Assembly (NCBI GenBank): GCA_017444785.1
Contig: JAFSVX010000025.1
Location: 1-51,721 of the forward strand
Direction: 5' to 3'
From: Clostridia bacterium
GTDB taxonomy: Bacteria; Bacillota; Clostridia; Christensenellales; UBA1242
DNA length: 51,721 bases
Shown: one piece after another, positions 36,463-36,976 of the stretch
Layout of the letters: every line of letters begins with the position of its first letter
Position numbering within the stretch: the first letter of the stretch is position 1
Position numbers and translations under genes: made by a program
Notes under the pieces: model-generated
What the model saw: the letters and a program-made list of their open reading frames with translations, nothing else
Database searches by the model: none
What the model was told of the DNA's origin: nothing

Positions 36463-36491
36463 TTGACAAAAATGAAGCAATGTGTTATTAT
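36463..36491 (+). promoter_or_regulatory. Near-consensus sigmaA promoter facing tRNA fragment 1
   Basis: TTGACA (36463-36468), 17-nt spacer, TATTAT (36486-36491), preceded by TGT (extended -10). Confidence 0.6.
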
Positions 36492-36547
36492 TTACTCGTT
36501 TCCTAACGCATGACATAATATGTAAGCAAGAAGGAATTTGACGCCAT

Positions 36548-36587
36548 GCAGGGTTGGCGTAATTGTATAACGCAATCGCCTCCTAAG
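36548..36587 (+). pseudogene. Truncated tRNA-Arg(CCU) 5' half, copy 1 (degenerate D-loop)
   Basis: GCAGGGT-TG-GCGT-AATTGTATA-ACGC-A-ATCGC-CTCCTAA-G. The following GACCT cannot pair with ATCGC and there is no T-arm. The D-loop lacks GG. Confidence 0.6.
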
Positions 36588-36612
36588 ACCTAACCCGACC
36601 AAAGTGAGAAAC

Positions 36613-36652
36613 CCCGTAAAGTGCTGTATTTATCGGCATTTTAGCGGTTTTG
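36613..36652 (+). terminator. Hairpin plus T-run after tRNA fragment 1
   Basis: ~13-bp bulged stem CCGTAAAGTGCTG / CGGCATTTTAGCGG followed by TTTTG. Confidence 0.45.
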
Positions 36653-36722
36653 AAAATTTAGCAAAACAAAAAAGTGTTACCAAATCTGTACATTGTTCCA
36701 ATTTTACATTACCTGCAAAATA

Positions 36723-36751
36723 TTGCATTTCAATACATTTCGTGCTAAAAT
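36723..36751 (+). promoter_or_regulatory. sigmaA promoter facing tRNA fragment 2
   Basis: TTGCAT, 17-nt spacer, TAAAAT, with a TGC extended -10. The -10 box ends 19 nt before the fragment. Confidence 0.55.
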
Positions 36752-36770
36752 TTGCACCAAATGACAATAT

Positions 36771-36810
36771 GTCTCAGTAGCTCAGCTGGATAGAGCACCT
36801 CCCTCCTAAG
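36771..36810 (+). pseudogene. Truncated tRNA-Arg(CCU) 5' half, copy 2
   Basis: GTCTCAG-TA-GCTC-AGCTGGATA-GAGC-A-CCTCC-CTCCTAA-G has canonical 5'-half geometry. The following TATCG cannot pair with CCTCC and there is no T-arm. Confidence 0.8.
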
Positions 36811-36890
36811 TATCGACTTGGACAAAATTAAAACCTCTAAACACCCCTAAAATACTGACAATTTGCAAGTAATCCAAACTCACACAAAAC

Positions 36891-36912
36891 CAAAGTTCAC
36901 CAAAAGTTCACC
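36891..36912 (+). repeat. Tandem 11-bp direct repeat (C/A)AAAGTTCACC x2
   Basis: CAAAGTTCACC at 36891-36901 and AAAAGTTCACC at 36902-36912, 25 nt upstream of tRNA fragment 3. Confidence 0.8.
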
Positions 36913-36936
36913 CAACGCCAATAAAGATCTTAATAT

Positions 36937-36976
36937 GTGGATATAGCTCAGCTGGATAGAGCGATCGCCTCCTAAG
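36937..36976 (+). pseudogene. Truncated tRNA-Arg(CCU) 5' half, copy 3 (attL junction of the ICE)
   Basis: GTGGATA-TA-GCTC-AGCTGGATA-GAGC-G-ATCGC-CTCCTAA-G. The following GGACT cannot pair with ATCGC. The integrase gene lies 139 nt further on. Confidence 0.8.

Follow-up and report, generated by a model that had tools for sequence, protein, structure and literature searches.

Classical genomic islands at tRNA genes regenerate their target and leave displaced 3' fragments (Islander, PMC4383910, in the parts of that paper drawn on here). In the tRNA-dependent lysogeny of actinobacteriophages (Fionnbharth, Cluster L, Gaia), a tyrosine integrase uses an attB inside a tRNA gene with a core of 8-10 bp, arm-type sites flank the core, no tRNA is rebuilt, and a phage tRNA of the same isotype has been shown to be required (Guerrero-Bustamante & Hatfull, mBio 2024, PMC10865867, in portions). 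Integration of the Lactobacillus johnsonii prophage Lj965 also fails to rebuild the tRNA, and this prophage encodes possibly complementing tRNA genes (cited in the same portions of PMC10865867). Streptococcal Tyr_8 integrases target tRNA genes, including tRNA-Arg, and make short direct repeats (PMC5357655, in part). The locus described here lies in a 51,721-nt stretch of a contig from a Clostridia bacterium (JAFSVX010000025.1; this whole stretch is called the window), in which three 5' halves of tRNA-Arg(CCU) genes stand in tandem at the left end of a predicted integrative and conjugative element (ICE). The region that holds them, 36463-36976, is probably the left flank of a nest of integrative elements, each with its own replacement tRNA-Arg(CCU).

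The split tRNA-Arg(CCU) genes and the junctions of the ICE

Each half in the window begins with the acceptor strand, goes on through a complete D-arm and the 5' side of the anticodon stem, and closes with the loop CTCCTAA and a G (Table 1); in all three the likeness to tRNA stops after a common 9-mer, CCTCCTAAG. When both strands of the 51.7 kb were searched, this 9-mer was found three times, always on the plus strand and within a span of less than 400 bp; the number expected by shuffling is 0.04, and none of 100 shuffles reached three. ARAGORN finds no tRNA anywhere in the window, nor does Rfam at its gathering threshold. A permissive Rfam scan of the window reaches only 15.5 bits at best (36937-37001), and a scan of the array region for a T-arm found none. 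All three halves are tRNA-derived: ARAGORN calls each of them tRNA-Arg(cct) once a complementary 3' half is supplied, and calls none when the sequence that actually follows is kept. The first 40 nt of an intact tRNA-Arg(CCU) in a metagenome contig (L071) match half 3 with 100% identity. The initial annotation, which was made without database searches, had described three tandem, tRNA-derived 5' halves of tRNA-Arg(CCU), and the sequence reads as it said; an intact gene over the same coordinates, sought with ARAGORN and Rfam, is not there. Half 1 has an atypical D-loop without GG and may be decayed; an orphan half in another locus (L068) looks decayed in much the same way. The sigma-70-like promoter upstream of half 1 presumably served the original chromosomal tRNA-Arg(CCU) gene.

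The position of the ICE boundary follows from other copies of the element. In contigs that encode an identical or 99% identical integrase protein (L001-L003 and L053), ICE sequence (GGACTGACGATTTC...) starts directly after CCTCCTAAG. The left junction, a host 5' half followed by CCTCCTAAG and GGACTGACG, is seen in five distinct contexts and is conserved in L001-L003, L053, L055 and L062; sibling copies adjoin four 5' halves other than that of the window (acceptors in Table 1), and an integrase 74% identical (L052) occupies the same position in another tRNA. No tRNA is present at any ICE left junction, and the sequence GGACTGACG... that follows the core cannot pair with the anticodon stem. The core of half 3 is the attL crossover site of the ICE, as the initial annotation had supposed from the window alone.

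The far end of the element was reached through overlapping contigs, by way of restriction- or defence-like cargo to an HTH_3 gene, and then by a look-up of the HTH_3 protein. This gave 10 far-end loci, nine of which contain an intact tRNA-Arg(cct) some 50 nt past that gene, encoded on the opposite strand. It is the only tRNA-Arg that ARAGORN finds per far-end locus, it scores 55.3 bits in Rfam, and a TTGACA-17-TATATT promoter, identified by eye, precedes it. About 400 bp separate this tRNA from the far end, with some five copies of TTTCCTACGAA (L043, L044), an 11-nt arm repeat that is found at both ends of the ICE, flanking the core. The right junction reads ...GTCCAGTAAAG, then CCTCCTAAG, then the 3' half of a host tRNA-Arg(CCU), of which the loci show at least five versions; the counterpart junction that the initial annotation had asked for at the far end is therefore found in sibling copies. 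Across hosts, the 9-bp CCTCCTAAG is the only sequence common to left and right junctions. The 5' half of L001 joined to the 3' half of L044 gives a perfect tRNA-Arg in ARAGORN, and the end with the integrase and the end with the HTH_3 gene are connected through overlapping contigs. Recombination at the 9-bp core puts the ICE into the host gene, which it splits without restoring a tRNA at either junction, and the element carries a whole replacement; sibling copies are found in no fewer than five host tRNA-Arg(CCU) genes. That 5' rather than 3' tRNA parts lie beside the integrase, the reverse of the usual geometry, had been remarked on initially; the remark is explained, not contradicted, by elements that never rebuild their target and bring a whole replacement tRNA, which could not be seen at the time because in this ICE it lies beyond the window.

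Recurrence of the units and the proposed nesting

The two units between half 1 and the ICE, 36588-36810 (223 bp) and 36811-36976 (166 bp), are flanked by cores and free of genes in the window. The second, attributed to an element E2, recurs elsewhere. A further unit stands before the same ICE in L053; it is made up of a host half with acceptor GCAGCCG, the core, TATCGCATTGAAC..., two 11-bp direct repeats and a half with acceptor GTGGGTA, and is homologous over its whole length to window 36811-36976. A metagenome scan with the junction pattern CCTCCTAAGTATCG..TTGRACAA gave seven more loci (L065-L071), all without the ICE, each with a different orphan 5' half, the core, a TATCG spacer with repeats and an intact tRNA-Arg(cct). 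The E2 left junction, CCTCCTAAG followed by TATCG, is known in eight contexts besides the window and runs on into an intact tRNA in seven of them, at a distance of 126-145 nt; the window's E2 spacer is homologous over its full length to L053 and L065-L071. The intact tRNA of L071 scores 68.6 bits in Rfam. In the six loci with a tRNA of the E2 family the two halves covary: five pairs are compensatory, 100% of the cells are paired, and no shuffle among 500 was as good. The orphan halves do not pair with the 3' half of the unit except in L071 and L070, which are uninformative for this test because orphan and unit tRNA have nearly the same sequence. Covarying halves and unpaired orphans imply that the E2 unit brings a whole tRNA and not a half for fusion with that of the host. 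A tyrosine integrase lies 0.7-0.9 kb downstream in L065, L067 and L068, reading towards the tRNA. It belongs to another family, being 28% identical to the ICE integrase in the catalytic domain.

Nesting itself is visible elsewhere. In L051 the right end of the ICE is followed by the core, a 3' half, an E2-type terminator (recognized by eye) and an E2 integrase 97% identical to that of L065, and since terminator and integrase follow the ICE right junction, the ICE sits inside an E2 element there. Two E2-family integrases follow the ICE right junction in L049. Locus L069 has three layers, the last of which is a further unit type, E4, with its own tRNA and integrase. Nested insertion into element-borne tRNA-Arg genes, which was among the options favoured by the initial annotation (with element-borne as a possibility), gains from both lines of evidence, the recurrence of the half-3 unit with intact tRNA and integrase and the ICE inside E2.

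The proposed history can be outlined as follows. All stacked elements would recombine at the same 9-bp tRNA-Arg(CCU) site, composed of C31, the anticodon loop CUCCUAA and G39. As target and element would share this short core only, integration would split the tRNA and neither junction would rebuild it. Every element would bring a complete tRNA-Arg(CCU) gene with its own promoter and the same 9-mer, and this replacement would be the sole intact target left for the next arrival. Every arrival would strand another 5' half on the left and, presumably, another 3' half on the right, past the end of the window. The layers in the window, in order from the left, would be the chromosomal promoter with half 1, the left end of a putative element E1 with half 2, the left end of E2 with half 3, and the ICE (E3), whose replacement tRNA would be encoded on the other strand, some 400 bp before the far end. 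Half 1 would stem from the chromosomal tRNA-Arg(CCU) after its splitting by E1, in the outermost and presumably oldest layer; half 2 would come from E1's own tRNA, split by E2, and half 3 from the E2-borne tRNA, split by the ICE.

The steps of this history differ in strength. The E2 junction at half 2 marks E2 as the element that cut it. Half 3 belongs to the replacement tRNA of an earlier element, because its unit recurs with an intact tRNA and an integrase downstream. Half 1 is most likely the original chromosomal gene, judging from its position by the NrdD operon and its strong promoter, and its decayed D-loop fits the oldest layer. The attribution of half 2 to a tRNA of E1, with E1 following the same pattern, is made by analogy with E2 and is the weakest step, because E1 is known only from this genome. 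The bodies of E1 and E2 would still lie to the right of the ICE; live nesting predicts there a 3' half, CGATAGGTC...TATTCACACCA, followed by an E2-family integrase. The replacement tRNAs are presumably expressed and needed. A tRNA-Arg(UCU) might read AGG by wobble, however, and for this reason an element tRNA may not be essential.

Several observations weigh against this account. No single contig spans both ends of the ICE, which are linked by overlapping contigs from different samples, and the window ends inside the ICE, so that its own replacement tRNA, its right junction and the predicted mirror-order 3' halves would lie beyond the edge. Junction-pattern scans found the E1 junction nowhere else, leaving E1 known only from this genome. 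The right end of E2 was reached in no locus, and no second core occurs within 8 kb in L065; in L066 the 1.9 kb downstream of the tRNA contain no integrase match. How far E2 extends and which integrase is its own are both inferred. The chromosomal genes rpsT and gpr directly follow, in L043, a 3' half with the same sequence as the one in the L071 unit tRNA, and for that reason an L071-type tRNA can also be chromosomal. Relatives of the E2 integrase in IMG/VR (~30% identity) have ordinary genes for tRNA-Arg(CCG) or tRNA-Ala as neighbours and lack orphan halves there; relatives so distant are uninformative on this site.

Other histories have to be set against nested insertion. ICE accretion is known to leave non-autonomous remnants, the cis-mobilizable elements (CIMEs), and the solo units of the window could be of that kind, E1 and E2 having inserted at the same core and since lost their bodies, so that no trace of either would be left to the right of the ICE. 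Both units are indeed short and without genes, with direct copies of the core on either side. In the E1 spacer a hairpin like that of the ICE left end occurs together with repeats and a tRNA leader, and a left and a right end could have fused there; the E2 right end has never been seen, and the chromosomal genes after the 3' half in L043 would also suit such decay. This is nonetheless an unlikely history, since the E2 unit runs into a whole tRNA in seven loci, with covarying halves in the six of the E2 family, three of the seven have an integrase downstream of the unit tRNA, and an E2 integrase lies just past the ICE right junction in L051. The same covariation makes very improbable a mirror image of classical reconstitution, in which the right ends of E1 and E2 would carry a promoter and a 5' half that fuse with the host 3' half. 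Its appeal is that repeats and a -10-like sequence precede each 5' half and the core follows it, and that the acceptor GTGGATA can pair with TATTCAC through G-U. In the six E2-family loci, however, the 3' half pairs perfectly and covaries with the 5' half of the unit, and the stranded host half is unpaired with it in four of six, L071 and L070 being too alike for the test. In addition, the 126-145 nt between the TATCG junction and the tRNA have no room for an element body, and the integrase is downstream of the tRNA.

Imprecise excision, by which the ICE would have taken extra 5' halves from former hosts as passengers, had been left standing beside nesting in the initial annotation, and the presence of the same ICE beside a GTGGRTA-type half in several contigs speaks for it. 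It is not supported by the comparison of window and L053, where the ICE is ~96% identical as far as aligned and the adjacent units are clearly diverged; moreover, units exist without the ICE in seven loci and ICE copies without a unit in L001 and L055, so that capture by excision has very little to recommend it. Local duplication or an assembly artefact can practically be dismissed. Halves 2 and 3 do have a D-arm of 19 nt in common, yet acceptor stems, anticodon stems and spacers differ, homologous units occur in other genomes, and an identical three-unit array stands beside the same ICE in a separate metagenome assembly (L062, ERZ28653717), which by carrying it unchanged shows that the array is no artefact; the initial argument against simple local duplication holds. 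An origin of the units by inversion between the core of the ICE tRNA and that of the right junction, possible on paper, was dropped. A group I intron in tRNA-Arg(CCU) was also discarded, with no Rfam match and no 3' exon after the halves.

Features and gene content of the elements and their surroundings

Table 1. Features of the window, with the acceptor strands of the 5' halves that adjoin the ICE in each context.
Feature	Position or locus	Strand	Details
Sigma-70-like promoter	36463-36491	+	TTGACA-17-TATTAT; 11/12 match; 57 nt upstream of half 1
Half 1	36548-36587	+	GCAGGGT TG GCGT AATTGTATA ACGC A ATCGC CTCCTAA G; core 36579-36587
Left end of inferred element E1	36588-36770	+	183 bp; begins ACCTAACCCGACC (ACCTAACCC...)
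Half 2	36771-36810	+	GTCTCAG TA GCTC AGCTGGATA GAGC A CCTCC CTCCTAA G; core 36802-36810
Left end of element E2	36811-36936	+	begins TATCGACTTGGACAA; ends with leader of E2 tRNA
Half 3	36937-36976	+	GTGGATA TA GCTC AGCTGGATA GAGC G ATCGC CTCCTAA G; core 36968-36976
ICE left end (P' arm of attP)	36977-37114	not assigned	
ICE tyrosine integrase, 465 aa	37115-38512	-	Pfam Phage_integrase 7.9e-28 and Phage_int_SAM_5
HTH_17 protein, 75 aa, candidate excisionase	38502-38729	-	PF12728 on the same gene in L001
ICE body to window edge	38747-51721	-	
Left-junction 5' half	L001/L002		acceptor GCAGCCG
Left-junction 5' half	L053		acceptor GTGGGTA
Left-junction 5' half	L055/L056		acceptor GACCTCG; GTAA/TTAC D-arm
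Left-junction 5' half	window and L062		acceptor GTGGATA

The element to the right of half 3 is, on the reading of its sequence, a predicted ICE (E3): it has an integrase, an excisionase-like gene, a relaxase, a coupling protein, a type IV secretion system (T4SS) ATPase and att junctions, partly in sibling copies. The part within the window encodes DUF3848 proteins, an N6/N4 methyltransferase, an ArdC/M78 protein, a VirB4-like ATPase (45173-47794), a T4SS pilin (49703-49993) and, truncated at the edge of the window, a large surface protein. Sibling copies continue with the coupling protein, a MobL relaxase, cargo, the HTH_3 regulator, the tRNA-Arg(CCU) gene and attR; those with relaxase and coupling protein are 97-98% identical to the window where aligned. 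Capsid and terminase families are absent from the Pfam annotations of the ICE, many of whose open reading frames (ORFs) are unannotated, and the hallmarks of a temperate phage are not found.

The left end of the ICE has a hairpin with a 19-bp stem at 37008-37053, likely a two-way terminator, and two arm-type repeats TTTCCTACGAA at 37085-37106. In the E1 spacer a hairpin motif at about 36610-36651 resembles this ICE-end hairpin (83% identity to 37030-37052), and 21-nt direct repeats at 36705-36725 and 36734-36754 lie upstream of half 2; this left end is known only from the window and L062. At the E2 left end, AAAGTTCACCA and AAAGTTCACCC (36892-36913) form a pair of 11-bp direct repeats and are candidates for arm-type integrase sites. 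A -10-like sequence and repeats lie upstream of each 5' half, and the core lies after it. BLAST of both spacers against ICE loci L001-L024 gave no match. A hairpin motif of the form AAAGTGCC...GCCC, loop, GGGCATTTCAGCAC is found close to the core at both ICE ends (37008-37053 in the window, about 1130-1175 and 1335-1365 in L044), and by eye also in the E1 spacer (36610-36651), in the E4 spacer (L069) and at the L052 left end. The motif may bind a protein or, as a terminator, keep transcription that starts at the tRNA promoters from reading through.

Further observations concern relatives and variants of these elements. In L052 a split 5' half, GTTCTCA..., at 4600-4730 (minus) has a partial duplicate about 100 nt upstream, consisting of the leader end and the first 21 nt of the tRNA without the core, which may be a decayed older junction. 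In L069 (oriented, ~1893-2123) the E4 junction reads CCTCCTAAT, with the shared block one base shorter, and the E4 tRNA has a GTAA/TTAC D-arm, the same as the ICE-borne tRNA. An ICE variant in L057/L058 (~11693-13745) has an integrase cut to 373 aa, followed by KilA-N, HTH_19 and YpsA-like genes, and its left end has been replaced, because no CCTCCTAAG core is present there. In L041 (337-1700) the match to an intact ICE ends just past the HTH_3 gene, with an IS3-family element beyond, and this copy appears to have lost the tRNA and the right junction. The contig ends of L003, L054, L059 and L061 break inside the conserved D-arm CTCAGCTGGATAGAGC, which fits the presence of one ICE in several hosts within a single sample.

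Variable cargo in L031 and L041 (~3200-16500 in L041) comprises WYL, an SNF2 helicase, DUF4391, an N6/N4 methyltransferase and a ResIII/endonuclease, a combination suggestive of a restriction or defence island. In L014, a tet(M)-like ribosomal-protection gene (EF-G family, 640 aa) at 6678-8620, with a serine recombinase nearby, interrupts the gene for the restriction endonuclease of a related ICE, a type for which this locus yielded cargo genes only. A similar gene of 639 aa at 7079-8998 of L046 is flanked by insertion sequences and lies just upstream of the HTH_3 end of the ICE. The E2-type element of L065 (574-3002) encodes a 586-aa MZB (MrfA Zn-binding) domain protein and a PLD-family nuclease, which together resemble a DISARM-type defence module.

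Several searches for further sites returned little. Extending the ICE by a first 10 kb brought to light no tRNA and no core, and a scan of genome contigs gave four loci and no att site. Scans of viral contigs gave one partial integrase match at 37%, with no match to the relaxase or to the junction pattern, and an annotated phage collection held no integrase more than 40% identical to the ICE or E2 family. Rejected as att sites were a third copy of CCTCCTAAG in L066 and one core-like match each in L041 and L051; those in L066 and L041 look like ribosome-binding sites.

To the left of the array the window is ordinary chromosome, with an NrdD/NrdG operon, a cysteine desulfurase, FtsH and YchF; L025, from the same species, adds NifU beside the cysteine desulfurase. 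A contig carrying the NrdG neighbour of the window ends before the array. In the region 31871-35942 (minus) the NrdD gene encodes an ATP-cone and a C-terminal glutaredoxin-like domain (aa 749-798) and adjoins NrdG and a gene for a thioredoxin-reductase-like flavoprotein, an arrangement that may be a fused reductant system for the class III enzyme. An ORF of 3089 aa occupies 18423-27692 on the plus strand, also in the chromosomal part.

Implications and comparison with known systems

Integration that splits a tRNA gene and replaces it had been experimentally shown only in actinobacteriophages (2024) before, and the present finding widens it to a conjugative element and to small integrase islands of gut Firmicutes-like bacteria. 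With the replacement tRNA as the next landing site, a nested stack would build up in which the sequence of arrivals can be read from the 5'-half scars. Programs that recognize islands by a regenerated tRNA and a displaced 3' fragment would miss or mis-delimit such elements, and tRNA finders are silent at their junctions. The 9-bp target in the anticodon loop is identical in all hosts with this tRNA, which fits the varied host tRNA backbones seen. Sibling copies of the ICE carry as cargo a tet(M)-like gene and restriction- or defence-like genes. A bolder and rather doubtful extension is that the working tRNA-Arg(CCU) gene of these gut bacteria is itself mobile, with unrelated element families, an ICE and at least two integrase islands, each destroying the resident copy and installing their own. 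Were this so, AGG decoding would be handed from element to element, a seemingly chromosomal gene would often be element-derived, the stacked 5' halves would be a record of the order of invasion, and the short, universally conserved anticodon-loop core would give the elements a very broad host range. Orphan halves that have retained their promoters might be transcribed into tRNA-half-like RNAs.

Like classical tRNA islands and prophages, the elements described here have a tyrosine integrase beside a tRNA junction, and in both the crossover can be in the anticodon loop. Williams is said to have distinguished, in 2002, an anticodon-loop class of tRNA att sites. Repeated use of one tRNA site gives arrays of tRNA fragments in classical islands as well, but here the target is not regenerated and 5' halves accumulate beside the integrase; the arrangement in which a 3' tRNA part is carried and the target is regenerated beside the integrase is not the one found. 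Several elements at one site, in tandem or nested composites, are also known from the accretion of ICEs and integrative and mobilizable elements in Firmicutes (ICEscreen, PMC9585547; PMC5357655; both in part), a literature whose titles and abstracts, with a term search of PMC5357655, give no sign of nesting in replacement tRNAs. Lj965, unlike the ICE, is a phage, and the portions of PMC10865867 that mention it report no nesting. That paper makes no mention of conjugative elements, and no reuse of an element's tRNA as a target was noticed in those portions. More generally, literature searches turned up no case of an ICE that integrates by splitting and replacing a tRNA, and none of nesting in replacement tRNAs. 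For the mechanism there is a recent precedent; the ICE setting, the host-wide anticodon-loop core and the serial nesting have not, as far as was found, been described.

This precedent, tRNA-dependent lysogeny, matches the ICE in several respects. A tyrosine integrase works with arm-type sites that flank the core, here TTTCCTACGAA; the core inside the tRNA gene, here 9 bp, is too short to rebuild the tRNA at either junction; and the element carries its own tRNA, here a tRNA-Arg(cct) in nine of the 10 ICE far-end loci and also in the E2 and E4 units, that of the window copy lying beyond the edge. The differences are that the element is a conjugative one of gut Firmicutes-like bacteria and not a phage, that its target is tRNA-Arg(CCU), and that its tRNA retains the core and is where the next element lands, which would account for nested stacks with ordered scars of 5' halves.

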